Source: Eledone cirrhosa (taxonomy: Eukaryota). Taken from it: 64,000 bases of DNA. This document shows positions 3,314 to 61,790 of this stretch, piece by piece. Numbering within the stretch: position 1 is the stretch's first letter; every line of letters starts with the position of its first letter. The DNA lies in NCBI GenBank assembly GCA_964016885.1, contig OZ024741.1, positions 215,574,001 through 215,638,000 on the forward strand. Reading direction: 5' to 3'. The notes beneath the pieces are model-generated. The model was given only the letters and a program-made list of their open reading frames with translations, made no database searches and was not told the origin of the DNA. A program made the translations under genes and the position numbers.

Positions 3314-3614
3314 GTGTGTGTGCGCGCAAAAATTAAAAGGAAAACACAACACTGTACAATGAAGAAGTATAATAATTTAACGCTTAATATAGTAGGAGGA
3401 ATAGAGACTTGACATTTCGGACACCAGTCCTTCATCAGAACATAGAATGAGAAACAGAAGATATAACAAAGAGATAGAGTGTGACAAGAGGTTGGAACGA
3501 AAAAATATATATAGGTATTTTTAGAAAAAGCACGTATATATATATATATATATATATATATAATCTTTGGTTTTTACCTAAATTGAAAATATATATATAT
3601 ATATTTATTAAATA

Positions 3615-3690
3615 ACAGATTAAAGTTTAAGCAAAGAATCGCTGCTTTCACCCTTAACGGGATCTTCTGAAACTAACAAAGTCAATCTGT
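3615..3690 (-). ncRNA. HHR-like motif with CAGAAGA core (family A pLTR)
   Basis: Reverse complement of 6720-6795. Confidence 0.65.
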
Positions 3691-4041
3691 AAACGCAGAA
3701 CTGGATATTTCAAAAAACGTTGCAACCGGAGGAAGACAGGAAGACGATAATTTGGTTCGTGGGAACGTTCGCTGGCAAAGAACGGGAAAAAACGAATAAT
3801 ACGTCATTAATAGGAGCGGTGAAAAACAATTACGCGCGAAGACAGAACCACGTTTATGGTATAAAAGAGGTCGTAGACTAATGTTCTCTTAGGTGGAGCA
3901 TAGAGACGTTCTCTGGCAATGAACGAAAAAACGAAGATAATAAGCCTTATGTGGAGCGTGGAGAACAATAGCACGCAAAGACAAAACCACGTAAATGGTA
4001 TAGCAGAAGTCGTAGACTAAAATTCTAAGGATTCTAACGCC

Positions 4042-5809
4042 GTGCACGTCCATTCCGACAAAACTGGCAACCTATATCAAGTGGAGCGCAGTACTTACCA
4101 TCAACTACTACATAATGCTGTAACTAAGGATTACCGTAAAACTAATCGGTGCGTCATCAATGAAATCAACGACGCTGGGTTTAAAATCACATCTGATCTC
4201 AACATCCTGGACCGGACCGAACCTCTGGACCCTATTTCGCCCCACTTTACCCTGAAGGATCACAAATCCAATTTTCCGAACAACCCCTCTATTCAGCTTA
4301 TTAACCCTACGAAGTCCGATTTAGGTAGACTTAGTAAAACGATTCTTGATAGAATTATACCTGAAATTAGAAGTTTGGCCCCTCTCGCACTGTGGAACAA
4401 TTCTTTCGCGGTGATTGATTGGTTCAACGGCATACGTAACAAGGAACATTGCCGTTTTATCCAATTCGACATCAACAATTACTACTCCTCCATCACTTTA
4501 CCACTTCTCCTTAGAGCTATCAATTTCGCTAAAACACTCACAGTGGTTAAGGATTTCGAAGTTGATGTCATCCTTAATGCCCGAAAGTCGGTGATTAATT
4601 TCGACGACTCTATTTGGATTAAAAAATCCAATAGTACTCCATTCGACGTGAGTATGGGCGCCAATGACTCTGCGGAGGTTACTGATCTTATTGGCCTTTT
4701 CCTCCTTTTCTCTATCAAGGACGAATTCCCCAACGCGGGCGGTGGTTTGTACCGTGACGATGGTCTTTTGACCATGACTAAGTGCGGACCTCGTGCTTGC
4801 GACAGGATCAGAAAAGAACTCACAGCCTTCTTTAAAGGCTTCAACCTCTCTATACAGGTTGAGGCCAATCTCTCGGTCGTTAATTACCTCGACGTTACCC
4901 TCAATTTATTGAATGGGTTGTATTACCCGTATAGAAAGCCGAATGATACGCTTAATTACATAAGTAAGCATTCCAACCATCCTGCCAGCATAACCAAGAA
5001 CCTGGTAAGAAACGTTTCGTTGAGGCTTTCCCGTCTTTCCACCAACGAGCGCATTTTCAACGACCATTCCACTTATTACAATGAAGCTCTTGCTCGAAGT
5101 GGATTTGTCGATAAGGTAGCAGAGTACGAAAATAGACCTAGAAGAAATAGATCCCGTCGCATTTGTTGGTTTAACCCACCATATAATATGGAGGTGGCCA
5201 CACCATTAGCTAAGATCTTTCTTTCCCTTATTACGAAGCATTTTCACCCTACACATAAATATAGTAAAATTTTTAATAGAAATACTATTAAAATTTCTTA
5301 ATCTACGACTCCTAACCTTGCACATAACATCACAGCTTCAAATTTAGGTAAACTACCTAACCGTAGGAACACGGGCAACCCTGTAGTTAGTACTAACTGT
5401 AATTGTAGGAATCGGGCTGATTGCCCCCTATCCGGGAAATGCCTCTCTAGTAACGTTGCCCCGTAGGGCCTACATAGGGTTAACCGCCAATAGTTTCAAG
5501 CAGCGTCTTTACATGCATACCCATTCTTTTCGTTACCCTCTAAGAAGGAATATGACGTCACTTTCAGCTTATATCTGGAGTCTAAAAGACAACCACACCC
5601 AATATAAGTTACACTGGGAGATCCTAGCTAGGGCTAGATCGTATAACGGAAATAAAAGACCATGTGACCTCTGCGCCGCTGAGGCCCTGGAAATACTCTA
5701 CGCCACAGACCACATCTTAAACAAAAAATCTGAGGCAATTTCGGCTTGTAAGCATAAATTGCACAAAACTTTCCTGTATTACAGCCCCACGTTACACCCT
5801 AACGGATAG
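4042..5809 (+). pseudogene. PLE reverse transcriptase plus GIY-YIG endonuclease, disrupted
   Basis: DKTGN, LKDHK, FDINNYY, MGANDSAEV, LYRDDG, WFNPPY, CNCRNRADCP, YIGLT..FKQR, CDLC, CKH. TAC>TAA at 5299-5301 and a deletion near 5455 relative to the 59814 copy. Confidence 0.92.
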
Positions 5810-6719
5810 TACGATCTATACGTGGATATTTTACGTCTTGATATGGGAGCTAAGTATATGTTTTGTTTATTCCTTTACTTATCTGCATAGGTAAGTATAT
5901 ATTACCCGTATGTTTTGTGAAGGTATGTATACCTTCTCGTACGTATATTTGATTGTTATGGCTTATAATTTTTATATTCTGGTATTTAGGGTTTGGCTAT
6001 GTGTATACGGGAGTTTTGCGTCTGCGTGAGTATGCAGGTTCGTACGTATGGTGGGTGTGTGTATATGTGTACTTCTTGTTTTAGTTGACTTACGTCTCCG
6101 AACATTCGTGTATTTATATGTAGGTATGTGTGTGCGCTTGTTATATACGTATTTATTTACTTATATACGTTTATATAATTATTTATTTATTTGTACACAA
6201 GCATACACAAACACACATATTTATATGTGCGTGGTTTTGTATACCTATGGTAAGGTTTTGCGTATGCTTGTGTATGTACGTACTTGTTTGTGTGTATGTA
6301 TTTATTTATTTCTATTACTTCTGTATTGTATTTATTTTCTTTGTTTTTAACTCTGTAGCAGAGATTCATTTGGTCTCCTAGCTAGAATTTTAGTCTACGA
6401 CTTCTGCTATACCATTTACGTGGTTTTGTCTTTGCGTGCTATTGTTCTCCACGCTCCACATATGGCTTATTATCTTCGTTTTTTCGTTCATTGCCAGAGA
6501 ACGTCTCTATGCTCCACCTAAGAGAACATTAGTCTACGACCTCTTTTATACCATAAACGTGGTTCTGTCTTTGCGCGTAATTGTTTTTCACCGATCCTAT
6601 TAATGACGTATTATTCGTTTTTTCCCGTTCTTTGCCAGCGAACGTTACCACGAACCAAAGTATCGTCTTCCTGTCTTCCTCCGGTTGCAACGTATTTTGA
6701 AATATCCAGTTCTGCGTTT

Positions 6720-6795
6720 ACAGATTGACTTTGTTAGTTTCAGAAGATCCCGTTAAGGGTGAAAGCAGCGATTCTTTGCTTAAACTTTAATCTGT
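6720..6795 (+). ncRNA. HHR-like motif with CAGAAGA core (family A pLTR)
   Basis: ACAGAUUGA..AGUUU-CAGAAGA-UCCC guuaa GGGU-GAAA-GCAG cgauucu UUGC-UU-AAACU-UUAAUCUGU. Helices I, II and III all pair. Confidence 0.7.
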
Positions 6796-6892
6796 TATTT
6801 AATAAATATTTGCTCTACGGTTCTTATATATTTGATATATATTTATCCTTATCGAGCTCTCTTTGGATTTTAGTCTTCAATTTTATTATTAT

Positions 6893-8530: not shown

Positions 8531-8574
<44 letters not shown>

Positions 8575-8789
8575 GTTAAAAATGTACATCCACATATGTA
8601 TACTGAAATACTAGTATGCATATGAATACACACACGTATACATATGTAGATGTACCAAGTTTTTCACTGGTCACTTTACTGTGAGTGTCCAGCTATTCTG
8701 TATGTAAACACACAGACAAACCGGTTTTTAGAGTCATACTGGTTTTTGAGGAAACACCTTTCCTCTATTCTCCAGAAAGCCAGACAAGG

Positions 8790-8834
8790 AATATTGAACT
8801 AGTTTCGTTGTTGTTACAACTCATCAGCAATATT
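8790..8834 (-). ncRNA. Minimal type I HHR
   Basis: Exact reverse complement of 9235-9279. Confidence 0.85.
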
Positions 8835-9234
8835 TACCTATCTTCCGGCCTTTCTGGAGAATCGTAAAAGCACATATCGTTATATGCTTTTTCTATGAAA
8901 ATTAGTAGTGGGCAGACTAATTTGCATAGAGTGTGAGTACGTACCGGTTCAACGGAGACGATAAAAACAAATAACGAAACGAAATTAAATTTCGTTTCGT
9001 TTGTAACTCACTTTTGTATGACTGACGCTTAAACAATTAAGCGTCAGTCATACAAAAGTGAGTTACAAACGAAACGAAATTTAATTTCGTTTCGTTATTT
9101 GTTTTTATCGTCTCCGTTGAACCGGTACGTACTCACACTCTATGCAAATTAGTCTGCCCACTACTAATTTTCATAGAAAAAGCATATAACGATATGTGCT
9201 TTTACGATTCTCCAGAAAGGCCGGAAGATAGGTA

Positions 9235-9279
9235 AATATTGCTGATGAGTTGTAACAACAACGAAACTAGTTCAATATT
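9235..9279 (+). ncRNA. Minimal type I HHR
   Basis: AAUAUUG-CUGAUGA-GUUG uaacaa CAAC-GAAA-CUAG-UU-CAAUAUU. Palindromic helix III (ACUAGU). Helix I extends (uucuccagaaag/cuuucuggagaa). Confidence 0.85.
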
Positions 9280-9649
9280 CCTTGTCTGGCTTTCTGGAGA
9301 ATAGAGGAAAGGTGTTTCCTCAAAAACCAGTATGACTCTAAAAACCGGTTTGTCTGTGTTTACATACAGAATAGCTGGACACTCACAGTAAAGTGACCAG
9401 TGAAAAACTTGGTACATCTACATATGTATACGTGTGTGTATTCATATGCATACTAGTATTTCAGTATACATATGTGGATGTACATTTTTAACTTAATTGT
9501 TTAAGCGTCAGTCATACAAAAGTGAGTTACAAACGAAACGAAATTTAATTTCGTTTCGTTATTTGTTTTTATACATATATATATATATATATATTCGTGT
9601 ACAGATATTTTTGCATACACAATAACAAAATATAAACAAGCATATTTAT

Positions 9650-23214: not shown

Positions 23215-26130
23215 TATATTAAAATACAAATATTAATAAAATAGATGTTCTTTTGATCAATTACATTTTATTATACATATTTCGGAGGTACAACAGTACG
23301 TCCTCATCAGACAAAATATAATGATACATGACACACCCTGAGATGTTAAATAGTTAAAATTTAATCAAGGTAGTGATTAACCCAAGAGAAAATTCAACAT
23401 TTATACCCTAATAATGAGAAAATGCGAAAACGTAATAAATTCAATAGAGAATGTGTGAGTAAGAAAAAACGTTGGTTAATGTGACAGCTATAGAGATTTT
23501 AAAATGTAGGATACTGCAAGTTATGTTTATCTAGGAAAACATCTCATGAATTATAACAGTCAGTGAGGGCCGCTGAGATGGGATTTAGAGAGAGGGAAAA
23601 ATAAATGGGGGTAATATATGCAGAAAGAGATTTTTTCCAAAAGCTAAACGGTTAAGTTTCAAAATATTTAATTTATGTTATTTTAGGGTGAAGAATCAAG
23701 ATTTAAGGGATTTTTTTTAAGTTGCTGGTTATTTATATTTATTAATTTTATAAATTCTATAAGTGTGTTAACATTTCTAAACTTCTGAATGTTATGAGGG
23801 TAATATTTAAAGGACTTACCTGGCCAGCGAAAGGAAAATTTACACTGTTGAATATTTTCCTAAATGTAAACTTTAACGAAGATAATCTATAAAAATATCA
23901 ACATTTTCAGTATGTAAAGCTTATGAAGTACTTATTGTTAGAAATATTTAAATAACGATTATGTATATAGATATATATTAATGAGCCAGTATATTTTAGG
24001 TAAATGATAACGAATATAAAATAATAGATTGAAGCATGCTAAAGTTAAATAGATACCTATATATGTATAACAGGGTGTAAATGCATGAATTATGCATAGT
24101 TCAAAATAAATAATAACCTAGAAATTTAGATGTTATCTAAAGATTATGTATAGAGAGATATAGGGAGGTATATATAGATATATATTAGGTATTAGTGATA
24201 CAGTATACTGAAAATGTACAGGTAAATGATAACGATTATAATCTTATATAAAGGATTTCGACGTGTTACAGTTAAATACATACATATATATAAGAAAAAC
24301 AATAATAAATGCATGGATAATTCAGAGTTCAAAATAAGGTCCATAATAATTTATAGTTTGGATATTTGCTCTATATTTGAATCATGGATATAAAAATACG
24401 GTAGGTATATTTAAAAACTTACAAGAGATAATTACATACATATAAATAAGTAATCGAAAATGTAAACAAATGAAAGATTCAGAGTTAAAAATAATTTTCG
24501 TAAACATATAAGGGTTTAAGGGTTGGATATAGAGATATATTAATGAGCCAGTATATTTTAGGTAAATGATAACGAATATAAAATAATAGATTCAAACATG
24601 CTAAAGTTAAATAGATACATATATATAAAAGGGTCTAAATGCATGAATTATTCAACATTCAAAATAAATAATCTAAAAATTTAAAAGTTATCTAAAAATT
24701 AGGTATAGAGAGATACAGAGAGATATATATAGATATATATTAAGTATTAGTGATACAGTAAACCTTTGGGAAATGATAACGATTATAATCTTATATAATA
24801 GATTTCAACGTGCTACAGTTAAATACATACATATATATAAGAAAAATAATAATAAATGCATGGATAATTCAGAGTACAAAAGAAGGTCCATAAAAATTTA
24901 CAGTTGGATATTTGCTCTATGTTTGAATCATGGGTAGAAAAATACGGTAGGAATATTTAAAAACTTACAAAAGATAATTGCATACATATTATAAATAAAA
25001 AATGTAAACACATGAATGATTCACAGTTAAAAATAAGTTCCATAAAAATATACAGGTTGGATATTTAAACTAAAATTTAAAAATTATATAGGAAAATAAT
25101 GATAGAGAAATAATGGTATGGATCAAAGTTAATAATATTATGTTATGTATATCAACGTGTCAGCGTGTTATTGAACAAGTGTCATTCATTCGAGCGTTAT
25201 TTCTTCTATAGATAGTTATAAGATACTGCAATATTAAAGCCCATTAATGTTTTTACGTCTGAAAACCAAGTTTAATGACTTAGTGTTTTTTTTTTCTCTT
25301 TTTTTCTGGTTTTGTGGGAGGCTAGGAATGTAGACGTAGCTTTATGAAGGCAACTAGATAATAATTCACTTTTTTGGGGTAATTAGGGTCTCATAGTTAT
25401 TAATAATCAACAGGGTCTCCATTGTACAGAGCGCGCAGTTATTTGATATACTAGAGTTGCGGTAAACTCCACAATTCCGAAGTTTTGTCCAAAGAACGGA
25501 GTATTTTAAATTCCTCTCTTTTAATGACCATATGAGCTGTGATAAAGAAGTGGATGATTTCCTCTTGGAGTTCGAGAATGAGCATTTATGGTTCGCAAAT
25601 CTGGCTTTAAATGTAGAATAAGTCGATCCTATGTAGTTGTATGTGTTGTGATCAGTTTTTACGGTGCATTTGTAAACCAAATTACTATCTAGACAATTAT
25701 TTTGCAGAGGGCAGTCAGTTTTATTTCTACAATTTCATTTCGGTTTAGTATCATTTATGTTAACGCTATTATTAAGATCATTATGCTGGTTTTGTGTTAG
25801 AATTTTTGTGTTTAATTAGGCAATGCTTTGGGCCATGTTCATAGTTGTAGAATACGAGAATTTAATGGTGTGTCTATTAAAAATGGAATGGTATTTATGT
25901 TGAGTAGGGAAAGACGTCTCCAAACCATTAAAGAATAATTTTGCAATTGGTGTTCTAACAGCGACCGAAGCAGGGGGAGGGGGGCGAACCATATGATTGA
26001 TTTAGTTCTAGTTCTTTTCCTCAATTTATTTGGCGTATGGGTGTTTGAATTATAATTATTAGAGTTTCGTTTATATATGTTATTATTTTTATCAAGATTA
26101 AGACTTGGATTATTATTATCTACATATTCT
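23215..26130 (-). mobile_element. Degraded PLE 3' portion (Naiad-like) with ~2 kb AT-rich 3' region and terminal HHR
   Basis: WFAP, xNCRNKTDCP, VYKC..YIGST..FKARFANHKCSF, CALC at 25340-26030. Internal ~560-bp duplication (23970/24535). Confidence 0.85.
23265..23317 (-). ncRNA. Type I HHR
   Basis: AUUUUGU-CUGAUGA-GGAcGUAC uguu GUACcUCC-GAAA-UAUGUA-UA-AUAAAAU. Confidence 0.8.
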
Positions 26131-28503: not shown

Positions 28504-28952
28504 TTTGGGAACCATTCACGGTGTGGTTCAATGACGAATTAATTAATTAAATAATCAACAAGCAGAGCAATATATAAGAAAGTAAATCCATAGAATCATT
28601 AGATGAAATATACAGTATTTCTTCTCCCAATCAGCATAATTAACCATACAAAAAATCATTTAAACGAGGCTATAAGTTTAAAATATACCTATGAAAAAAT
28701 TATATATATATATATATATATATGGCTCTGTCTAGTTTATGTGTATGTAAACTTCTAAATTTTATATACTCCCGTAAGCTTGAGTAAAACTTTAGGCAGT
28801 ATTCGGCTGCTCTTTATAGCAACCAGCCTACTCGCCACCAGTCACCAATCACAAGCTTTCTGACTTGACCACTGACCACGTGACAATTCTTAGCCATTTT
28901 GAATCCGTTTCTGGCGGGGATCATTTAAGAAAAATCTTTGTCCAATTGAGTT

Positions 28953-29037
28953 TGTCTCCTGATGATTTCGAAACTCGTTGATTTATTCAAGATCGGATGT
29001 ATCCAAAAAGCAAATGAAACCTCCGGTGGTAGAGATA
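28953..29037 (+). ncRNA. Type I HHR with long helix II
   Basis: UGUCUC-CUGAUGA-~50 nt-GAAA-CC uccggu GG-UA-GAGAUA. Confidence 0.75.
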
Positions 29038-29338
29038 TATTTGATGACTTTGGTATGTTTATGTACATTTTTTGTTCTAACTTTGATTTTGTACCTAATT
29101 ATGTATGGTTAACTATATGTCTAATCAATTTCTACGGGCTATCAGAAATAGTGGGTAAATTTTCTGTGGCTGGCTGTGAATCGCGGATAAAAAGCTATCA
29201 TTTATTTATCTATTATTTCTTCATAGGTATATTTTAAACTTATAGCCTCGTTTAAATGATTTTTTGTATGGTTGATTATGCTGATTGGGAGAATAGATAC
29301 TGTATATATTTTATCTAATGATTCTATGGACTTACTTT

Positions 29339-29404
<66 letters not shown>

Positions 29405-29502
29405 CTTTCTAACTTGACCACTGCCACGTCACGATTCTTACCCATTTTTGAATGTATTTTTGGCGCGATCACTTTGGAAAATTAAATGTCTAATTGAGCT
29501 CA

Positions 29503-29576
29503 CTCCTGATGAATCCGAAGCTCTGAACATTCCCTATTATCAGATGTCTTAAAATACGGATGAAACCATGGTAGAG
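29503..29576 (+). ncRNA. Type I HHR with long loop II and palindromic helix III
   Basis: CUC-CUGAUGA-AUCCG...CGGAU-GAAA-CCAUGG-UA-GAG. Confidence 0.8.
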
Positions 29577-29862
29577 GTAATTTGGTATGTACGCATTTCT
29601 TCTAAGTTTGATTTTACACCTAATTGTGTTTGGTTGACTGTATAGCTGGTCGATTTCTACATGCTGTCGAAATGTTCGATAAATACTCCGTCGTAGCCAC
29701 CGCGAAGGGGCTGCTTTCGGTTATTTGTCGGAGATTTCTTCATAGGAGCCTTTTTTCTTATAGCTTGGTCTAACTGATTTTTTATGTGGTTAATTATGCT
29801 AATTGGGAGAGGAAATGGTATATATTATATCTAATGATTCTAAAGACATGTTTTATGATATG

Positions 29863-29924
<62 letters not shown>

Positions 29925-31942: not shown

Positions 31943-31961
31943 TATAAATATATATATATAA

Positions 31962-32280
31962 ATTCAAAATATTAATAAAAGTAGACATTCACGTAATCAA
32001 AATATATTTTATTATATATATTTCGGAGGTACTGTGCTGTTTTTTCAGTACGTCCTCATCAGATAAAATACATAAATTAATGTATGACATACCACAACTA
32101 TACTGATGGTTCAATTCCAGTCTTGGCAGTGGACGTCCTGATGAGGACGTACTGAAAAAACAGCACAGTACCTCGAAATATATATAATAAAATATATTTT
32201 GATTACGTGAATGTCTACAAGTATTAATATTTTGAACTAATATTAATAACCCCAGAAAACATTTTTCTTGTTGAGTGCTT
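31962..32280. mobile_element. Inverted pLTR pair related to the 23265 family; HHRs at 32006-32069 (minus) and 32138-32193 (plus)
   Basis: AUUUUAU-CUGAUGA-GGAcGUACUG..CAGUACcUCC-GAAA-UAUAUA-UA-AUAAAAU. Confidence 0.85.
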
Positions 32281-38386: not shown

Positions 38387-38442
38387 AATGTAAGTATGTA
38401 TGTATACGTACATACATATATGTATACAGACGTACAGTAGCA

Positions 38443-38496
<54 letters not shown>

Positions 38497-38586
38497 TAGA
38501 ATATTCGAAAATATTCTGTATGTTTATAATAAACATTTTGAAGACCTAATCGCTATAGAATAGAATACGTCACGTATTACAATTAG

Positions 38587-38675
38587 ATTCTCGATAAAAG
38601 CAAGGGAAGTAATCTACGCGTTTCATTCTCGTTAGAAATCATCAGGACTACATATCCAGTGCTTTTATCGAGAAT
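38587..38675 (-). ncRNA. Minimal type I HHR (second copy at 38897-38985)
   Basis: Reverse complement of 39481-39569. Confidence 0.85.
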
Positions 38676-39480
38676 GACACAGCTAGAGACTTATAGAATA
38701 CTTAGCTGTGTACAGGAACTGGTTTGAAAGAGCGGTTGCCGGTCCGGCAGAAATTAGAAATTGGAATAAATGCTCTGAAATAGCGATATATATGTGAATA
38801 TAGACATAGAATATTCGAAAATATTCTGTATGTTTATAATAAACATTTTGAAGACCTAATCGCTATAGAATAGAATACGTCACGTATTACAATTAGATTC
38901 TCGATAAAAGCAAGGGAAGTAATCTACGCGTTTCATTCTCGTTAGAAATCATCAGGACTACATATCCAGTGCTTTTATCGAGAATGACACAGCTAGAGAC
39001 TTATAGAATACTTAGCTGTGTACAGGAACTGGTTTGAAAGAGCGGTTGCCGGTCCGGCAGAAATTAGAAATTGGAATAAATGCTCTGAAATAGCGATATA
39101 TATGTGAATATAGACATAGAATATTCGAAAATATTCTGTATGTTTATAATAAACATTTTGAAGACCTAATCGCTATAGAATAGAATACGTCACGTATTAC
39201 AATTAGATTCTCGATAAAAGCAAGGGAAGTAATCTACGCGTTTCATTCTCGTTAGAAATCTAATTGTAATACGTGACGTATTCTATTCTATAGCGATTAG
39301 GTCTTCAAAATGTTTATTATAAACATACAGAATATTTTCGAATATTCTATGTCTATATTCACATATATATCGCTATTTCAGAGCATTTATTCCAATTTCT
39401 AATTTCTGCCGGACCGGCAACCGCTCTTTCAAACCAGTTCCTGTACACAGCTAAGTATTCTATAAGTCTCTAGCTGTGTC

Positions 39481-39569
39481 ATTCTCGATAAAAGCACTGG
39501 ATATGTAGTCCTGATGATTTCTAACGAGAATGAAACGCGTAGATTACTTCCCTTGCTTTTATCGAGAAT
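39481..39569 (+). ncRNA. Minimal type I HHR with long helix I
   Basis: AUUCUCGAUAAAAGCA..GUAGUC-CUGAUGA-UUUCU aacg AGAAU-GAAA-CGCG-UA-GAUUAC..UGCUUUUAUCGAGAAU. Predicted cleavage after 39541. Confidence 0.88.
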
Positions 39570-39775
39570 CTAATTGTAATACGTGACGTATTCTATTCTA
39601 TAGCGATTAGGTCTTCAAAATGTTTATTATAAACATACAGAATATTTTCGAATATTCTATGTCTATATTCACATATATATCGCTATTTCAGAGCATTTAT
39701 TCCAATTTCTAATTTCTGCCGGACCGGCAACCGCTCTTTCAAACCAGTTCCTGTACACAGCTAAGTATTCTATAA

Positions 39776-39847
<72 letters not shown>

Positions 39848-39852
<5 letters not shown>

Positions 39853-40282
39853 CAGGTACACATACATATATGTACGTATCAGTTTAGCGGACGCTTATTA
39901 TAGCGCCCGCTTTGTTCGTTTGTAAACAAACTGAACAGCCTGAATTTATGCCGCACGGTGTTAAGGCAACCACGTCACCTTTTTGTTCAACACTGACACA
40001 GGAACGATATACTAGTTTCAAGCTTGTTAGCTATCATCAGCACCGTATACCCTTCTGCCAGATGGTTGAACGTTCGAAAGTATATGCTTTCCTTATGAAA
40101 ATTAACGGCTGAGCAGCCTAATTTGCATATCGAGTGAGTTAAATCGGTCAGGCGCACCGAAAACGATGAGTTGTAATAAAATGAAAACGAAATTTCATTT
40201 CTCACTCTTAGTACGGCACTTACTTAAATGTAAGTATGTATGTATACGTACATACATATATGTATACAGACGTACAGTAGCA

Positions 40283-40344
<62 letters not shown>

Positions 40345-40783
40345 CAGGTACACATACATATATGTACGTATCAGTTTAGCGGACGCTTATTATAGCGCTC
40401 GCTTTGTTCGTTTGTAAACAAACTGAACAGCCTGAATTTATGCCGCACGGTGTTAAGGCAACCACGTCACCTTTTTGTTCAACACTGATCGATTTAACTC
40501 ACTCGATATACAAATTAGGCTGCTCAGCCGTTAATTTTCATAAGGAAAGTATATACTTTCGAACGTTCAACCATCTGGCAGAAGGGTATACGGTGCTGAT
40601 GATAGCTAACAAGCTTGAAACTAGTACATCGTTCCTGTGTCAGTGTTGAACAAAAAGGTGACGTGGTTGCCTTAACACCGTGCGGCATAAATTCAGGCTG
40701 TTCAGTTTGTTTACAAACGAACAAAGCGGGCGCTATAATAAGCGTCCCCTAAACTGATACGTACATATATGTATGTGTACCTG

Positions 40784-40827
<44 letters not shown>

Positions 40828-40942
40828 TGCTACTGTACGTCTGTATACATATATGTATGTACGTATACATACATACTTACATTTAAGTAAGTGCCGCACT
40901 AAGAGTGAGAAATGAAATTTAGTTTTCATTTTATTACAACTT
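39848..40942. mobile_element. Retrozyme-like family B (~490-bp unit containing a (TA)n tract), tandem plus inverted; HHRs at 40005-40045 (minus) and 40591-40631 (plus)
   Basis: CGGUG-CUGAUGA-UAGC uaacaa GCUU-GAAA-CUAG-UA-CAUCG. Unit start recurs at 39850 and 40342. Inversion at ~40487. Confidence 0.85.
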
Positions 40943-40964
40943 ATATATATATATATATATATAT

Positions 40965-41640
40965 TTATTCATTAAAATAACAGATTAAAGTTTAACCAAC
41001 GAATCGCTGCTTTCACCCTTAACGGAATCTTCTGAAATTAACAAAGTCAATCTGTAAATGCAGAAGTGGATATTTCAAAAAACGTTGCAACCGGAGGAAG
41101 ACAGGAAGACGATACTTTGGTTCGTGGAAACGTTCCCTAGCAAAGAACGGGAAAAAAACGAATATAATACGTCATTAATAGGAGCGGTGAAAAACAATTA
41201 CACGCAAAGACACAACTATGTTTATGGTATAAAAGAAGTCGTAGACTAATGTTCTCTTAGGTGGTTCATAGAGACGTTCTCTGGCAAGAAACGGAAAAAA
41301 CGAAGATAATACATCATATGTGGAAACTGGAGAACAATAGCACGCAAAGACAAAACCAGATAAATGGTATAGCTGAAGTCGTAGACTAAAATTCTAACTA
41401 GGAAACTGAATGATTCTCAGATTCAGAGTTAAGAATAAAGTAAATAAAATATAATAAAGAGGTAATTGAAATTAAATAAATACATACACGCATACAAATA
41501 CGTACATACACAAGCATACACGAAAACACTCGCCATAGGAATACAAAACCACGCAGATATAAATATGTGTGTGTGTGTGCGTGTATACGAATAAATAAGT
41601 AATAAATAAACGTATACATAAATACATAAATACGTATATA
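40965..41640 (-). mobile_element. Diverged family A 3' region/pLTR with CAGAAGA HHR-like motif (40980-41055)
   Basis: Reverse complement of ~6150-6805. Confidence 0.85.
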
Positions 41641-44405: not shown

Positions 44406-44443
<38 letters not shown>

Positions 44444-44595
44444 ATACTTTGGGAGGGTCATGTTGCCAATAAGAAACACACGCACCAGTTGCTTTCACTT
44501 CAATTTATTATTATAATAAATTTATAATAAATTTATAAATTTATAAATTTCTGGTTGGTTGGTTGGTTCCACAACCAGATAGTTGTTTATATATT

Positions 44596-44638
44596 GTCAT
44601 AGTTCTTTCGTCACACACTCTGTGACCTCTTCAGTGAC
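44596..44638 (-). ncRNA. Minimal HHR in pLTR (second copy at 48662-48704)
   Basis: GUCA-CUGAAGA-G-GUCACA gagug UGUGAC-GAAA-GaaC-UA-UGAC; same strand as the ORF. Confidence 0.75.
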
Positions 44639-44834
44639 TGGGGATTCCTTTCTTTGTTTCTGTGCCTCTCCTTTGTTCTGTCCTACGCCATTTTGTTTCT
44701 GTGCGTGTGTGCTCAGTCTGCGCATACGCCACATCCGGGTGTCTGTGTGTGTTTATGTTCATTTATTTATTTGTTTATTTACATGTTACTGGTTGTTTGT
44801 TTGTTCGATGTGTGTGTGTGTTTTCATTTTGTCC

Positions 44835-47800
44835 TTAATTGTAAGTTGTGATGTTGCTGTTCCACTCATATTTTCTATTTAATTTTGGTTGTAATTCTTT
44901 TATGTTTATTGCCTCTGTAATTTGTCTAAACATTGCGTCTTTTCTGTGTGTAGATTCTATTTTTATTTCTATGTTCTCTAATTTACCCTTGTGTTCTATT
45001 TTAGCATGTTGGTAGAGTACAGATGATTCTTTACTATCTTGAAGGTCTCGCCAGTGTTCATTTATCCGTTCCCCTACACTACGAGCTGTCTCACCTATGT
45101 ACACTATATTTTTGTCTCTACATTGTTCTTCAGTACATCTTATGCTATACACTACATTTCTCGTGTTACAGTTAATATGGGGGCTTATTTTACAGGTTAT
45201 ACATTTCTTATCTATACATGAGGGTCTTTGAAAAGGGTATGTCTTGCTAATAAGTGTTTTTACGGAGGTACCTGGTCTTTCTACTATCTTAATATTGAGT
45301 TTATGTTTATTTAGGGCCCTTCTAAATTTGTAAGCTCTAGGCGTTGTATCAATGAACATTACACTCTGGTATTTATTGCTATCATACCATGAGTTTATTC
45401 TATTAGCCTTGTTCCTAGTTCTTTCTATTCTATTCCAAAATTTGCTCCTATACAAGGGGCAGGTCCCATTTATGTCATTATTTACCATTTTTTCCCATTT
45501 GGTTCTGGCTCCTCTATACACTCTGATTTTATCTCTCTGATTGTAGCCAGAGAACTGCATACGGTGGATGAAGTGTTGTATGTGTCTCTCTCTAGTTCTT
45601 CGGGGTTGCACATGTGGGACACGTTTCTCATCACCCGTACTAAATCCGCAATCAGTATGTTGATTTTGGTATGGTCCGAAACGGCCGAGTTTCGGTGGAT
45701 CAGATGTTTGGAAGTCATGGGTTTGGTATAATGGGAATGGAGGATTTGTTTTTTTGTTATTAATGGTATCTAACCACAGCTCTGTGTCTAGTACAGGTAA
45801 TCGATGCTTGGGGTGTTTACTTGGGTAGTCTATAGTAACTCTAATGCTCTGGTGGATGGAGTTAGCTATTTGCTGGATGCTTTCCATTGTGTTTTTCTCT
45901 AGTTCCTGACTGTTCTCTAGTGGGGGTGTCTTAACTACGATGTTTATATCATCAACGTAGCGGGAGTACATTATCAGGGTTAAGGGGTCTTCTAATTGTT
46001 CTTTAAGCTTAAGTTTAAGTCTACTGTCCCACCATACCATGAATAAGTTAGCTATGTCGCCTGCAATGCTAACACCAATGGCTGCTCCTTCCTCTTGAGC
46101 ATATGTTTTTCTATTAAATTTGAACATATGTTTCTTAAGGATTAGTTTTATGCTGGCCCCTACCGCATGTGCAATCATTTTCTTCAGTTCATCGTGGTTT
46201 TCGGGTGTCCGTATGGCTCTGGTCCACCCGTTCCATCTATCTGTGTGCGTTTTCTTGGCCATTGAGGTAATGGTAGGTGGTCTGCCTCTTGCTGGTCTTG
46301 TAGGGCACAGGTTGCTAAGGTCATATGTGTCAAGGTAATTATTACTATAGGTAAGTTTAAGTAGGAGTCCCAGCTCACTGGTATCAATCCCACGGAACTC
46401 AACATTGCTCTCACTGATCATTTCTACGCATTTCTCCACAGCAAAATCCACGTCAATAGATGGATACAGTGACACAACATCCATACTACCTATTATGCAG
46501 TTTGTTAGGTCCCTAGATCGGTTACCCACGCCGATTCTGCTGAGGAGGTCCTCCGTGCTGTCACATACATCTGGGGACATTTCGATGATGGGGCGTATGA
46601 TCAGGGAGAGGAAGTAGGACAGTCTGTAGTTACTAGCAATGTTAGCTCCACAGACTAGCCGTGTTGGTGATCCCGCGACAGGGTCACTGCCCGTTTTATG
46701 GTCTTTTCGAAGCCCATACAACGCCAGCACGTCATTGTTCCAGGCCTGGAAGTTGTTGGCAGTCCTTTTGTTGGGCTGCATTATATTCGTCCACATCACC
46801 ATATGGGCATTGAGGGCTTTTTCTCTATCATCATGCTCCTGTGGTGTTACCTCTCTTGTGTTAGTGATGTGGGGCTGCATTGCCTGGATGTAGTTTGGCA
46901 GGCTGTCAACCGACATTCTGCCAGACTTGTCTGTTGGAAAGCATGCTATCTCTCCATTACGCGAGCGCTGCATGAGCTTACGCAAGCCATTTGTAGATTT
47001 TTCTCCCAGTTGCTGAGCCTCCATGCTATTATGCTTCTTGCTATACTGTTCTATAATATTTCTAAGTTCGGATCTAGCTATACTAAATTGTGCTTCTGTT
47101 TGTTCATCGACCTGCGACGGCAATTGTGTGCGTTTGTTAAATGTTAAAGTCGTGGCGTGGACTCGTCGCAGGTCGAACGATTTATCGGAGGGATTATAAA
47201 AACTAGAGTTCCAGGCTGCTGCTTTATGTGTACTAGTGCTATTGTTATTGTTAGTTGTGTTGTTTCTATTTCTATTTCCACCAACAGCCTCATGGTTGTT
47301 TCTATGTCTCTCATAATTACTCCTGTCTCTTTCCACTGGCTCATTGTTGTTATCTACCCTATTTTGTGTGTCTGTGTGTTCGTCTTGGTTATTTTCTTTG
47401 TCCTTAGTCTCTTTTCTACTTTTAATCCTATTACTTTCCCTTATTTCTCTGATTTCTGTGCTACTGTCATTACTTGTTTTCTGTGTCTGTGTGTTTGTTA
47501 AGATTGTGGTGGTGGTGAGAGGCATTGAATGTGCGTGTGTTGTTGTTATTGATGTGTGCTGTTGTTGATGTGTGTTGTTGTTGTCTCCGTGTGTGTTATT
47601 ATTGTTGTGTGTGTTGTTATTGTTGTTTGTGTCTGCGTGTCTGTTGTTGTTGTTTCTGGGTATGTTATTATTGTTGTTGTTGTTGGTGTGTGTGTTGTTT
47701 TTATTGTTGTTTGTGGCTGTGTGTCTGTTGTGGTTGGGATGTGTGTTGTATATGTGTGTGCGTATATTGTTGCTTTTGTTTTTGTTTTTGTTTTTGAGGC

Positions 47801-48551
47801 TCCAGCGTAGTTTTGTAAATGATTTTTCTATTTCTGACAGACAACTAATCATATTTACCTTCTTGAATGTCGCATACTTAGGTGGAAGTTGCAATGCAGA
47901 TAATTCATCGTCATCTATTATTGTGTTGCCGTATATATTTGTGTTGTTGTTGTTGAACTCATCTGTTAATGAGGTGTCGGCCATATTTATACCATCAATT
48001 TTGTCGGGATCTCTATTGGTATTCTCTATAGTATCCTGATTTAGCTTTATCTGCTTAAGCCACTTTAGTTTCTTGTTAAAGTGCTTATCACATTCTTGAG
48101 TAATGTACTGTTCTTCAGGACGTATAAAGCTTATAAATATTAGTTTCTCTCTTGGTGTGGTGATCCTAGCTATTTCTTGTATTAGGTTACGCTTATGTTT
48201 TTCTTGATGACTTAATTCTCTATAGATTTTCTTTTTCATGTTTAGAATTAGTGTTCGTTTTAGCCTGTCTGCTTGTTTTTTGGTGAGTTGTAATCTTCTT
48301 ACGTCGGTGTTGATAGTGTTGGTGTAAACTCGGGACGAGGCACATTCTTTTATGAAGTATAGTTGTCGAGATGTTATGGTTTTTCGTAGACAACAGAACA
48401 TGGTGGTTTTCAGTATCTTGTTAGCGTGGCTAAGGCTTACGATATTTCGTTTCTGAATTTGTTTAGCAAGATTCTTTATCTGAAATCGTGTGTTGAAACC
48501 GATATTGTTATACTTTGAGAGGGTCATGTTGCCAATAAGAAACACACGCAC
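44835..48551 (-). CDS. PLE polyprotein: RT plus GIY-YIG endonuclease (1238 aa, with two compensating frameshifts)
   Basis: TDKSG, YGLRKDHK, GSMDVVSLYPSI, QEEGAAIG, RYVDD, CxxxxCxxC, NVVYSIRC..YIGETARSVGERINEH, EA..I..P.LN. Confidence 0.92.
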   Translation of the reverse strand: MRVFLIGNMTLSKYNNIGFNTRFQIKNLAKQIQKRNIVSLSHANKILKTTMFCCLRKTITSRQLYFIKECASSRVYTNTINTDVRRLQLTKKQADRLKRTLILNMKKKIYRELSHQEKHKRNLIQEIARITTPREKLIFISFIRPEEQYITQECDKHFNKKLKWLKQIKLNQDTIENTNRDPDKIDGINMADTSLTDEFNNNNTNIYGNTIIDDDELSALQLPPKYATFKKVNMISCLSEIEKSFTKLRWSLKNKNKNKSNNIRTHIYNTHPNHNRHTATNNNKNNTHTNNNNNNNIPRNNNNRHADTNNNNNTHNNNNTHGDNNNTHQQQHTSITTTHAHSMPLTTTTILTNTQTQKTSNDSSTEIREIRESNRIKSRKETKDKENNQDEHTDTQNRVDNNNEPVERDRSNYERHRNNHEAVGGNRNRNNTTNNNNSTSTHKAAAWNSSFYNPSDKSFDLRRVHATTLTFNKRTQLPSQVDEQTEAQFSIARSELRNIIEQYSKKHNSMEAQQLGEKSTNGLRKLMQRSRNGEIACFPTDKSGRMSVDSLPNYIQAMQPHITNTREVTPQEHDDREKALNAHMVMWTNIMQPNKRTANNFQAWNNDVLALYGLRKDHKTGSDPVAGSPTRLVCGANIASNYRLSYFLSLIIRPIIEMSPDVCDSTEDLLSRIGVGNRSRDLTNCIIGSMDVVSLYPSIDVDFAVEKCVEMISESNVEFRGIDTSELGLLLKLTYSNNYLDTYDLSNLCPTRPARGRPPTITSMAKKTHTDRWNGWTRAIRTPENHDELKKMIAHAVGASIKLILKKHMFKFNRKTYAQEEGAAIGVSIAGDIANLFMVWWDSRLKLKLKEQLEDPLTLIMYSRYVDDINIVVKTPPLENSQELEKNTMESIQQIANSIHQSIRVTIDYPSKHPKHRLPVLDTELWLDTINNKKTNPPFPLYQTHDFQTSDPPKLGRFGPYQNQHTDCGFSTGDEKRVPHVQPRRTRERHIQHFIHRMQFSGYNQRDKIRVYRGARTKWEKMVNNDINGTCPLYRSKFWNRIERTRNKANRINSWYDSNKYQSVMFIDTTPRAYKFRRALNKHKLNIKIVERPGTSVKTLISKTYPFQRPSCIDKKCITCKISPHINCNTRNVVYSIRCTEEQCRDKNIVYIGETARSVGERINEHWRDLQDSKESSVLYQHAKIEHKGKLENIEIKIESTHRKDAMFRQITEAINIKELQPKLNRKYEWNSNITTYN

Positions 48552-49181
48552 CAGTTGCTTTCACTTCAATTTATTATTATAATAAATTTATAATAAATTT
48601 ATAAATTTATAAATTTCTGGTTGGTTGGTTGGTTCCACAACCAGATAGTTGTTTATATATTGTCATAGTTCTTTCGTCACACACTCTGTGACCTCTTCAG
48701 TGACTGGGGATTCCTTTCTTTGTTTCTGTGCCTCTCCTTTGTTCTGTCCTACGCCATTTTGTTTCTGTTTGTGTGTTGTGTGCTCAGTCTGCGCATGCGC
48801 CACATCCGGGTGTCTGTGTGTGTTTATGTTCATTTATTTATTTGTTATTTACATGTTACTGGTTGGTTGTTTGTTCTATGTGTGTGTGTGTTTTCATTTT
48901 GTCCTTAATTGTAAGTTGTGATGTTGCTGTTCCACTCATATTTTCTATTTAATTTTGGTTGTAATTCTTTTATGTTTATTGCCTCTGGTTGTGGAACCAA
49001 CCAACCAACCAGAAATTTATAAATTTATAAATTTATTATAAATTTATTATAATAATAAATTGAAGTGAAAGCAACTGGTGCGTGTGTTTCTTATTGGCAA
49101 CATAACCCTCCCAAAGTATAACAATATCGGTTTCAACACACGATTTCAGATAAAGAATATTGCTAAACAAATTCAGAAACG

Positions 49182-49359
<178 letters not shown>

Positions 49360-50467: not shown

Positions 50468-51452
50468 TATAAACGGAAAAAATGAAACGAAATTTCATTT
50501 CTCACTCTTAGTACGGCTGTTACTTAAATATAAGTATGTATACGTACATACATATATGTATACAGACGTATAGTAGTATGTATATATATATATATATATA
50601 TACATACATGCACACATATATATATATGTACGTATGGATTCACCGAACATTTGTTATAATGCTCGGTGTGTTTGTAAACAAACATCACGAATTAAGCCGT
50701 AGTGTCTAGCAACCATCGTTGCTCATTTGTTCAACACTGACAAAGGAACGCTGTACTACATTCAAGCTTATTAGCTATCGTCAGCATTTTTCATCCGTTT
50801 CATTTTTTCCGTTTATCATTTTCGGTACCCCGGCCGATTACCTCACTCGATATGCAAATTAGGCTGCTCAGCCGTTAATATGCAGATTGTTGAACGTATA
50901 TACTTACCTTATGGATATTAACGGCTGAGTAGCCCAATTTGCATATCGAGTGGGTTAATCGGCCGGGTGCACCGAAAACGATAAACGGAAAAAAAGTAAC
51001 GAAATTTCATTTCCCACTCTTAGTACGGCTGTTACTTAAATATAAGTATGTACACGTACATACATGTATATATATATACATATATGCACACATATATATA
51101 TGTACGTATGGATTCACCGAACATTTGTTATAATGCTCGGTGTGTTTGTAAACAAACATCCCGAATTAAGCCGTACAGTGTCTAGCAACCATCGTTGCTC
51201 GTTTGTTCAACACTGACAAAGGAACGCTGTAGTAGTTTCCTTTGTCAGTGTTGAACAAATGAGCAACGATGGTTGCTAGACACTGTACGGCTTAATTCGG
51301 GATGTTTGTTTACAAACACACCGAGCCTTATAATAAATGTTCGGTGAATACATACGTACATATATATATGTGTGCATGTATGTATATATATATATATATA
51401 TACATACTACTGTACGTCTGTATACATATATGTATGTACGTATACATACTTA
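50468..51452. mobile_element. Retrozyme-like family B, rearranged copies; mutated HHR at ~50749-50786 (minus)
   Basis: Similar to 39848-40942; several inversion junctions. Confidence 0.8.
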
Positions 51453-51476
51453 TATATATATATATGTGTGTGTGTG

Positions 51477-59660: not shown

Positions 59661-59739
59661 TATATATATTATATATATATATACACACACACACATATAT
59701 ACACACATATATACACACACTCACATATATATATATATA

Positions 59740-60749
59740 AAGGCTTCAACCTCTCTATACAGGTTGAGGCCAATCTCTCGGTCGTTAATTACCTCGACGT
59801 TACCCTCAATTTATTGAATGGGTTGTATTACCCGTATAGAAAGTCGAATGATACGCTTAATTACATAAGTAAGCATTCCAACCATCCTGCCAGTATAACC
59901 AAGAACCTGGTAAGAAACGTTTCGTTGAGGCTTTCCCGTCTTTCCACCAACGAGCGCATTTTCAACGACCATTCCACTTATTACAATGAAGCTCTTGCTC
60001 GAAGTGGATTTGTCGATAAGGTAGCATATACAGAGTACGAAAATAGACCTAGAAGAAATAGATCCCGTCGCATTTGTTGGTTTAACCCACCATATAATAT
60101 GGAGGTGGCCACACCATTAGCTAAGATCTTTCTTTCCCTTATTACGAAGCATTTCCCCCCTACACATACATATAGTAAAATTCTTAATAGAAATACTATT
60201 AAAATTTCTTACTCTACGACTCCTAACCTTGCACATAACATCACAGCTTCAAATTTAGCTAAACTACCTAACCGTAGGAACACGTGCAACCCTGTAGGTA
60301 GTACTAACTGTAATTGTAGGAATCGGGCTGATTGCCCCCTATCCGGGAAATGCCTCTCTAGTAACATTGTCTACAAATGTAAGGTTGTAACACCCACGTC
60401 CCGTAGGGCCTACATAGGGTTAACCGCCAATAGTTTCAAGCAGCGTCTTTACATGCATACCCATTCTTTTCGTTACCCTCTAAGAAGGAATATGACGTCA
60501 CTTTCAGCTTATATCTGGAGTCTAAAAGACAACCACACCCAATATAAGTTACACTGGGAGATCCTAGCTAGGGCTAGATCGTATAACGGAAATAAAAGAC
60601 CATGTGACCTCTGCGCCGCTGAGGCCCTGGAAATACTCTACGCTACAGACCACATCTTAAACAAAAAATCTGAGGCAATTTCGGCTTGTAAACATAAATT
60701 GCACAAAACTTTCCTGTATTACAGCTCCACGTTATACCCTAACGGATAG
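59740..60749 (+). CDS. PLE RT thumb plus GIY-YIG endonuclease, open but 5'-truncated
   Basis: WFNPPY, CNCRNRADCPLSGKC, NIVYKC..YIGLT..FKQR..H, CDLC, CKH. Confidence 0.9.
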
Positions 60750-61745
60750 CACGATCTATACGTGGATATTTTACGTCTTGATGTGGGAGCTAAGTATATG
60801 TTTTGTTTATTCCTTTACTTATTTGCATAGGTAAGTATATATTACCCGTATGTTTTGTGAAGGTATGTATACCTTCTCGTACGTATATTTGACTGTTATA
60901 GCTTATAATTTTTACATATTCTGGTATTTAGGGTTTGGCTATGTGTATACGGGAGTCTTGCGTCCGCGTGAGTGTGCAGGTTCGTACGTATGGTGGGTGT
61001 GTGTATATGTGTACTTCTTGTTTTAGTTGACTTACGTCTCCGAACATTCGTGTATTTATATGTAGGTATGCGTGTGCGCTTGTTATATACGTATTTATTT
61101 ACATATATACGTTTATATAATTATTTATTTATTTGTACACAAACATACACACACACACATATTTATATGTGCGTGGTTTTGTATACCCTTGGTACGGTTT
61201 TGCGTATGCTTGTGTATGTACGTATCTGTTTGCGTGTATGTATTTATTTGTTCCTATTACTTCTGTATTGTATTTATTTACTTTGTTCTTAACTCTGTAG
61301 CGGAGATTCATTTGGTCTCCTAGTTAGAATTTTAGTCTACGATTTCTGCTATACCATTTACGTGGTTTTGTCTTTGCGTGCTATTGTTCTCCACGCTCCA
61401 CATATGACTTATTATCTTCGTTTTTTCGTTCATTGCCAGAGAACGTCTCTATGCACCACCTAAGAGAACATTAGTCTACGACCTCTTTTATACCATAAAC
61501 GTGGTTTTGTCTTTGCGCGTAATTGTTTTTCACCGCTCCTATTAATGACGTATTATTCGTTTTTTCCCGTTCTTTGCCAGCGAACGTCACCATGAACCAA
61601 AGTATCGTCTTCCTGTCTTCCTCCGGTTGCAACGTTTTTTTGAAATATCCAGTTCTGCGTTTACAGATTGACTTTGTTAGTTTCAGAAGATCCCGTTAAG
61701 GGTGAAAGCAGCGATTCTTTGCTTAAACTTTAATCTGTTATTTTA

Positions 61746-61750
<5 letters not shown>
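59740..61750 (+). mobile_element. PLE family A, second 5'-truncated copy; CAGAAGA HHR-like motif at 61663-61738
   Basis: Near-identical to 4835-6806. Confidence 0.92.

Positions 61751-61790
<40 letters not shown>

Follow-up and report, generated by a model that had tools for sequence, protein, structure and literature searches.

The window (64,000 nucleotides of the Eledone cirrhosa genome; contig OZ024741.1, positions 215,574,001 to 215,638,000) contains an array of 4.2 identical units of 310 nt (GC 34.5%), arranged as two divergent arms inside (TA)n; the RNA 3′ ends of both arms point at the flanking (TA)n and the 5′ ends are joined in the centre (Table 1). Self-comparison at a shift of 310 nt gave 0 mismatches over 461 nt for the left arm and 0 over 207 nt for the right arm; the right arm was also compared with the 310-nt unit (0 mismatches over 517 nt). 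No ORF of at least 120 codons was found inside the arms. The description in the earlier note of about four identical non-coding 310-bp units, present in both orientations and inserted in (TA)n, was thus confirmed. Unit phases are counted from 39542 (phase 1), the first nucleotide past the predicted cleavage site of the hammerhead ribozyme (HHR). The array was inserted in the (TA)n within one unit of a ~490-nt HHR family, the internal (TA)n of which has served as target for the 310-nt family also in another locus (L036).

Table 1. Features of the 310-nt array and of related elements in the window (positions are those of the window).
Feature	Position	Strand	Remarks
Left (TA)n target remnant	38446–38487		
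Left arm	38488–39260	−	2.49 units; RNA sense on −; 3′ end at phase 127 (proximal initiation site) at (TA)n; 5′ end at phase 285
Right arm	39257–39777	+	1.68 units; RNA sense on +; 5′ end at phase 26, 3′ end at phase 236
Microhomology of arm 5′ ends	39257–39260		4 nt, AATC
Right (TA)n target remnant	39778–39852		
Minimal type I hammerhead motif	39505–39547	+	CUGAUGA 39511–39517; palindromic ACGCGU; predicted cleavage after 39541; U-U in place of G10.1-C11.1
Second copy of the motif	38919–38961	−	predicted site 38925
Third copy of the motif	38609–38651	−	predicted site 38615
Distal extension of helix I	39481–39569	+	16 bp; 39481–39496 pairs with 39554–39569
Internal copy of family-wide 3′-end region	39666–39713	+	proximal ~39666–39680 (phase 125–139); distal ~39704–39713 (phase 163–172)
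14-nt motif in the 35–40 nt tail	39682–39695	+	kept in families only ~70% identical
Host ~490-nt HHR-repeat element	~38390–40940		two-armed, divergent; HHR sites 40010 (−) and 40626 (+); 3′ ends of the family offset by ~58 nt
464-nt HHR family	8569–9572		divergent arms; palindrome ACUAGU; 3′ ends offset by ~72 nt
~512–520 nt unit	50469–51458		degenerate relative of the ~490-nt family
Coding Penelope-like element (PLE)	44436–49187	−	near-intact; 1,241-codon stop-to-stop frame 44835–48560; pLTRs; HHR-like motif in pLTR; inverted 5′ copy; 60-nt tail

The same architecture had been ascribed to units of 464, ~490, 520, ~530 and ~548 nt elsewhere in the window. It was found in the 464- and ~490-nt families (HHR and divergent arms), to the second of which the ~520-nt unit is related; no clean HHR was present in the ~549-nt pair (28856–29919, 72% identical), no HHR in a 562-nt tandem (23962–25058), and a ~530-nt unit was not identified in the window. 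In the coding PLE, RT motifs, together with a GIY-YIG domain at the C-terminus, were recognised by eye, with no Pfam match (Pfam analysis of 12 frames gave GIY-YIG in one only); its 3′ ends lie 22 and 82 nt past the ATG, and its insertion architecture is that of the 310-nt family, with an unrelated tail sequence. Another PLE family was observed at 3589–6809, 59738–61765 and 40942–41640 (RT and endonuclease frames, 95% identical); the terminal parts of its copies are inverted, and one stretch, with the core CAGAAGA, resembles an HHR. One more HHR family, in which the loop of helix II is long and helix III is a TA palindrome, occurs at 23272, 32013 and 63684 (minus strand) and includes an inverted pair at 31956–32243.

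In the HHR of the 310-nt unit the core letters are complete, helix I measures 6 bp, helix II (UUCU/AGAA) measures 4 bp and the site is GUA; the stretch 39470–39580 folds with z = −4.8; the array matched nothing in Rfam at gathering thresholds. It shares with the minimal dimeric HHRs of PLEs (Cervera and de la Pena 2014, PMC4209133) the full core, the palindromic helix III with loop 3 and the type I topology, and differs from them in the 16-bp distal extension of helix I and in the closing pair of helix II, where the conserved G10.1-C11.1 is replaced by U-U in the window haplotype and by A-U in the 287A allele. On folding of the monomer, helix II reached a probability of ~0.15 in the window haplotype vs ~0.8 for a competing pairing of UUUC with the core GAAA; in the natural haplotype of locus L173 (287A, 295A) helix II reached ~0.9. 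The HHR of the window haplotype is predicted to misfold. Of the earlier description of each unit as carrying an intact minimal HHR, the palindromic ACGCGU, the GUA site and the 16-bp helix were confirmed; the motifs are three complete ones and one interrupted by the arm junction, instead of four, and intactness is limited to the core letters because the closing pair is U-U and the competing pairing is favoured in folding. In the published record G10.1-C11.1 is highly conserved among minimal HHRs, and those described so far cleave poorly (PMC4209133); eight of nine dimers of Xenopus retrozymes showed no cleavage (Li et al., bioRxiv 10.64898/2026.07.22.740005), and for an anole PLE unprocessed RNA was the main substrate and HHR activity was dispensable (PMC11167929). 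Locus-wide changes at unit phases 276–295 were seen to concentrate at non-core HHR positions (N7, 10.1, loop II); 0 of 42 locus-wide events fell on the 12 core HHR positions vs ~1.6 expected, which is not significant. Mismatches at 10.1-11.1 recur in several HHR families of the Eledone cirrhosa genome, and the commonest young haplotypes of the 310-nt family have predicted less active folds; judging by these folds, the weaker haplotypes may reflect tuning against self-cleavage of the circle.

The 310-nt element is a non-LTR retrozyme and belongs as such to a known class: its units are tandem, low in GC, non-coding and dispersed in the genome, carry a type I HHR motif, and lack the RT and GIY-YIG ORF of an autonomous PLE. 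In this they resemble the metazoan non-LTR retrozymes (non-coding low-GC tandem units of 150–450 nt, type I HHR, co-residence with PLEs; PMC7229834 and bioRxiv 10.64898/2026.07.22.740005). The 43-nt HHR stretch was counted in 4,033 exact copies in the 3.0 Gb genome (reversed control: 0), and the loci are spread over many contigs; the distal end on (AT)n gave 775 forward-strand matches genome-wide, from which ~1,500 loci are estimated. All genome counts were made with exact patterns, which bias the samples against edited loci. In sequencing run X5 (kind uncertain, possibly the assembly source) the 310-nt unit was present at very high depth and the 295G allele of the window at about a quarter of that depth, which would imply ~15,000 units. 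Five sequencing runs (8 of 24 listed runs examined) gave one circular contig each, at a depth of 5–365; two Hi-C raw runs yielded 0 reads and do not bear on the matter. None of the listed runs is recorded as RNA, which says nothing about expression either way. The 18 organism labels among the runs that hold the unit were not accepted as horizontal spread, trace contamination fitting the low-depth holders equally well. Haplotypes of 311 nt, with one extra base 2–3 nt past the cleavage site fixed in all units, were also noted: +C in L041, L048, L075 and L118, +T in L124, L130 and L139, each of the two at ~1% in run X5.

Insertion anatomy was studied in 110 stretches (L031–L140) and the window: L031–L040 were picked by HHR alone; L041–L080, L099, L100 and L097+98 as end pairs (biased); L081–L096 by one end; L101–L140 are 40 of the 74 loci with a phase-170 end and were picked by that end. 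Two-armed loci numbered 93 (complex L041 excluded, duplicated L060 counted once), and all 93 were divergent. Two arms were found in 9 of 10 loci of L031–L040 and in 37 of the 39 resolved loci of L101–L140 (two single-armed, one running off the stretch), so that in two unbiased samples the presence of both orientations, as seen in the window, is the normal product. In 92 of the 93 loci one end lay at phase 111–139 (~130; 52 loci at phase 130, 18 at 139) and the other at phase 160–173; the rule was obeyed by 50 of 50 loci with an unselected partner end (9 + 4 + 37), and the spacing of the outer ends (~35–40 nt) matches the 30–40 nt ‘tail’ signature of PLEs. The sole exception is the window locus (127 and 236), which carries no private variant. 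Its exact 236/(TA)n junction has no second occurrence in the genome; phase 236 was on this count rejected as a third regular start site, and the atypical right-arm end is probably a later deletion or a rare start. The ends being at two constant phases, the outer 3′ ends are fixed; the circular permutation of array ends across loci, which had been proposed as a check, applies only to the inner 5′ ends, the distribution of which over unit phases is uniform (KS p = 0.12). Flanks of the (TA) type were present at the 3′ ends of the 10 loci picked by HHR alone, later samples having been selected on that feature. Two older families, ~70% identical to the 310-nt family, have the same two ends with the 14-nt motif between them; from this sequence conservation the motif is likely a protein-recognition element.

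This anatomy is that of endonuclease-bearing (EN+) PLEs. Their insertions show an inverted 5′ copy, a tail of 30–40 bp and a bias to (TA)n (Craig et al. 2021, PMC8557442), and in vitro the tail spans two internal RT start sites, both DNA strands being cut and extended (Frangieh et al. 2024, PMC11167929). The 310-nt family likewise has the inverted 5′-truncated copy, the 30–40 nt tail and the microsatellite target, and its ends would correspond to two internal RT starts downstream of the HHR with extension of both DNA strands; unlike EN+ PLEs as described in these sources, it has no ORF and reaches up to 45 identical short units per arm. The insertions are very probably made by PLE machinery. 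Metazoan retrozymes are described as head-to-tail tandems, whereas the copies of this family mostly lie in (TA)n as a divergent pair of arms, with ends that are fixed and of PLE type; the words ‘inverted’, ‘orientation’ and ‘microsatellite’ are absent from the main text of PMC7229834, and array orientation may be given in supplements of the cited papers.

The two arms appear to have been primed separately. The proximal arm was longer by more than one unit in 31 of 93 loci and the distal arm in 42 of 93; neither arm bounds the other, which argues for two priming events and against one fold-back of a single cDNA, and the arm lengths are uncorrelated (rho 0.10). A short-loop snap-back as origin of the second arm was rejected on the same ground and by the 5′-end phases, 15 of 59 of which lay within 35 nt where chance alone would give 13.5. 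Fold-back chimeras exist in long-read data, and inverted arrays could in principle be such artefacts of sequencing or assembly; this is scarcely credible here, as two distinct fixed phases with different flanks recur in 92 of 93 loci, the lengths of the arms vary independently, and run X5 contigs agree in their alleles and show loose (AT)n ends at 39680 and 39711. At the arm junctions, microhomology of at least 2 nt was found in 43 of 93 loci vs 18% by chance; 12 junctions were blunt and 22 gapped, some through nearby variants. In the twin priming of L1, too, both target ends prime cDNA and the inverted parts are joined by microhomology; in L1 a single linear RNA is copied, the second primer serving a part that lies upstream without overlap, whereas both arms of the 310-nt family copy the same unit many times, from fixed sites 35–40 nt apart.

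The template was approached through haplotypes in 88 loci with at least 3 complete units. Among these, 29 locus-wide haplotypes were distinguished, and in 66 of 67 loci (0.16 by chance) one haplotype was common to both arms, the exception being L088. Rare alleles were fixed array-wide: 226G was counted in 32 units genome-wide (22 in L124, 7 in L171, 3 single, none of the three with the L124 or L171 haplotype), 145C in 25 units, array-wide in L225, L226 and L227 (7 of 8 places examined), and 144G in 35 units in L171, L124, L206 and L207 plus one sporadic unit. No donor matching the locus-fixed rare alleles (226G in L124/L171; 145C in L225/L226) was found among the loci examined. Variants of single units are not mirrored between the arms, with rare exceptions (L052, L106). 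Since private variants are shared by every unit of a locus, one template must have been read repeatedly; that this template was a single unit can be held with strong confidence, and that both arms derive from one molecule with good confidence. A mosaic at phase 276 was observed in L088 and in one unit of L091: A is present in those units of one arm that were made first, G in those made afterwards and throughout the other arm. Conversion, a switch of template or editing in the course of copying could be the cause.

Locus L171 is separated from L069, its parent haplotype, by 14 substitutions, all of them A>G on the HHR (RNA) strand and all identical in six complete units (4 + 2) and in the partial units of both arms. 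Further A>G changes were found in L124 (4), L206 (3) and L207 (2); each of the four arrays fixed for 144G carries additional A>G (13, 3, 2 and 1), vs none of three 145C control arrays with additional array-wide T>C. Locus-wide events comprised 14 A>G and 4 T>C vs 3 and 13 among single-unit changes (Fisher p = 0.0016), and A>G made up 14 of 39 locus-wide substitutions vs 3 of 85 single-unit changes (p = 5e-6; L171 not included); the events were counted along a minimum spanning tree in which one site (144) or more was routed wrongly. The 5′ neighbour was U or A at 18 of 21 A>G sites (p = 0.036). ADAR has such a lean to U or A as 5′ neighbour, and genes with an adenosine-deaminase domain (PF02137, ADAR/ADAT type) occur at 4 places of the genome. 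Per site, T>C alleles (3 arrays) were fixed array-wide about as often as A>G alleles (4 and 2), so that it is the clustering on which the case for editing depends; L171, L206 and L207 came from a search for A>G alleles, and their frequency is therefore no unbiased rate. If changes tolerated as G-U pairs were selected for, the bias at single sites could be raised, but not a cluster of 14 sites for which intermediates were not seen. Taken together, an ADAR origin of the A>G clusters is very likely.

The edited loci also bear on the nature of the template. An edited multimer would vary from unit to unit; the pattern in L171 accordingly calls for one edited unit copied repeatedly, into both arms, and likely records the repeated reading of one edited single-unit RNA from the two ends of the target. 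Read-through RNAs of donor arrays, left uncleaved and copied by ordinary target-primed RT of a PLE with no single-unit step, would agree with the predicted weakness of the HHR and with the mosaic of L088; they would not give identical edits at all repeated positions of both arms (L171, L124, L206), nor locus-wide rare alleles with no donor among the loci examined, nor single-unit variants that are mostly unmirrored between arms (L052 and L106 excepted). As a general rule this route is quite improbable and strongly disfavoured by L171, and could apply to a minority of loci.

A single unit may be read repeatedly as a covalent circle or as a linear molecule. The cleavage site was crossed by 177 of 186 arms; 5 of 186 5′ ends lay within 5 nt of it vs 6 expected, and unit-specific indels were found there in 0 of 866 complete units vs 21 elsewhere. 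The absence of an indel scar favours a circle over template jumping, and a covalent circle is likely. In the linear alternative, RT would hop repeatedly from the 5′ to the 3′ end of the same HHR-cut monomer and make concatemers with no covalent circle. Template jumping is known for retroelement and bacterial RTs, the 16-bp distal helix would keep the two ends of the cut monomer together, and shared private and edited variants are explained equally well in this way; the lack of a 5′-end pile-up at the cleavage site speaks against it, and the clean junctions would need scar-free jumps of more than 99% efficiency, so that this alternative is unlikely.

Part of the array length has a different source. 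Arms reach up to 45 units, and in the long arms of L097+98, L050, L052 and L053 unit variants repeat in a scattered fashion, from which it follows that part of the length arises after insertion. The 45-unit arm of L097+L098 (G000:C1:97.46-97.48 Mb) was seen to contain two unit variants in interspersed order, which points to unequal exchange at a later time or to a template of several units. Local amplification has been proposed for retrozymes (Li et al., bioRxiv 10.64898/2026.07.22.740005), and the repeated variants of the long arms are typical of unequal exchange; expansion and homogenisation of short PLE-type insertions as a satellite, by unequal crossover and gene conversion, is nevertheless highly improbable as the source of the arrays in general, since homogeneity extends over inverted arms at loci with almost no decay, nearly all arms (177 of 186) run through the cleavage site, and each arm of the seed would still have to receive more than one identical unit out of a single edited molecule (L171).

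Repeated reading of a likely circular single-unit RNA by PLE machinery thus upholds the core of the earlier proposal, rolling RT of a 310-nt circle by the co-resident PLEs, through the two fixed ends, the shared haplotypes and the edits of L171; the part assigned to the co-resident PLEs did not find support, as those examined are without the initiation motif. No autonomous PLE with the 14-nt motif or the tail was found among the PLEs of the window, the flanks of the fetched loci and 47 of ~10,600 GIY-YIG candidates, and in the same sample the unit showed no homology to a coding PLE, be it in the pLTR or in the 5′ ORF. A Neptune-like family of coding PLEs (L204, L211, L212, L214, L220, L222) was observed to have an HHR with U-U-closed helix II and palindromic AGUACU, with L222 being two-armed with offset ends; it was rejected as partner, its two ends being at similar distances yet of unrelated sequence. 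An attachment of the unit to an RT ORF, suggested earlier as a point to check, was never found: no 310-nt arm is joined to one, the 5′ flanks of 15 single-armed loci (one of them at an assembly gap) reach no PLE ORF, and PLE matches near 310-nt arrays are separate insertions. Nothing points to an RNA-to-RNA replicon: the HHR is present on one polarity only, no ribozyme of opposite polarity was found in the unit, and A>G clusters are confined to the HHR strand, T>C clusters being absent from the control arrays.

The full model, a young non-coding retrozyme with two-armed PLE-type insertions made from one likely circular RNA, is given a probability of roughly three in four. By analogy with other retrozymes, arrays would be transcribed, monomers would be freed by the HHR, which probably acts as a dimer formed via the ACGCGU palindrome, and a host ligase would circularise them. 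A PLE protein would bind near the conserved motif and start RT at the two internal sites, ~130 and ~165 nt past the cleavage site, where the ends are observed. A Penelope-type RT/endonuclease would cut both strands of (TA)n and prime from both ends on one likely circular 310-nt RNA; each cDNA would then make a varying number of turns (median 3–5, up to tens) on the same template of one unit, the repeated reading being observed and the circle presumed. The two cDNA 3′ ends would be joined, often with 1–5 nt of microhomology as seen at the junctions, and filled in by a putative repair path; A-to-I edits on the template, presumably by ADAR, would become the fixed A>G observed in every unit of a new locus. 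We lean, with some reserve, to a stricter form of this model, double rolling-circle RT: a PLE dimer would prime both microsatellite ends on one circular ribozyme RNA, both RTs would circle many times, and ADAR edits would enter the germline as heritable haplotypes, editing then being a major source of sequence change in the family.

In metazoan retrozymes circRNAs have been shown, and RT of a primed circle has been proposed with PLEs as candidates (Cervera and de la Pena 2020, PMC7229834); co-occurrence with PLEs and pLTR homology have been reported, the evidence on the life cycle being called limited (Li et al., bioRxiv 10.64898/2026.07.22.740005). PLE reverse transcription of retrozyme circRNA into tandem DNA has accordingly been a hypothesis since 2014–2020, resting in the portions of these sources considered here on co-occurrence and pLTR homology and not on evidence from insertions. 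The literature searched, with subscription papers lying mostly outside it, contained no description of retrozyme arrays that have PLE tail ends and none of retrozyme insertions with A>G hyperediting. The retrozyme class is already known; what is new here is the mechanistic record in genomic copies, which, unlike retrozymes as described in the published texts considered, preserve repeated copying of a single molecule together with clustered A>G. The edited copies indicate that the same RNA molecule served both primers, a point not addressed for EN+ PLEs in the corresponding parts of PMC8557442 and PMC11167929.

The edited copies serve as natural molecular barcodes, by which a single RNA unit is seen to have been read repeatedly from either DNA end; as genomic evidence for the mechanism proposed earlier, this record is uncommonly direct. 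They bear on the origin of tandem and inverted structures in PLEs, on circRNA as a transposition intermediate in animals and on the inheritance of RNA editing via retrotransposition; the family offers a 310-nt template with mapped start sites, and the barcode approach is applicable to any genome with retrozymes.
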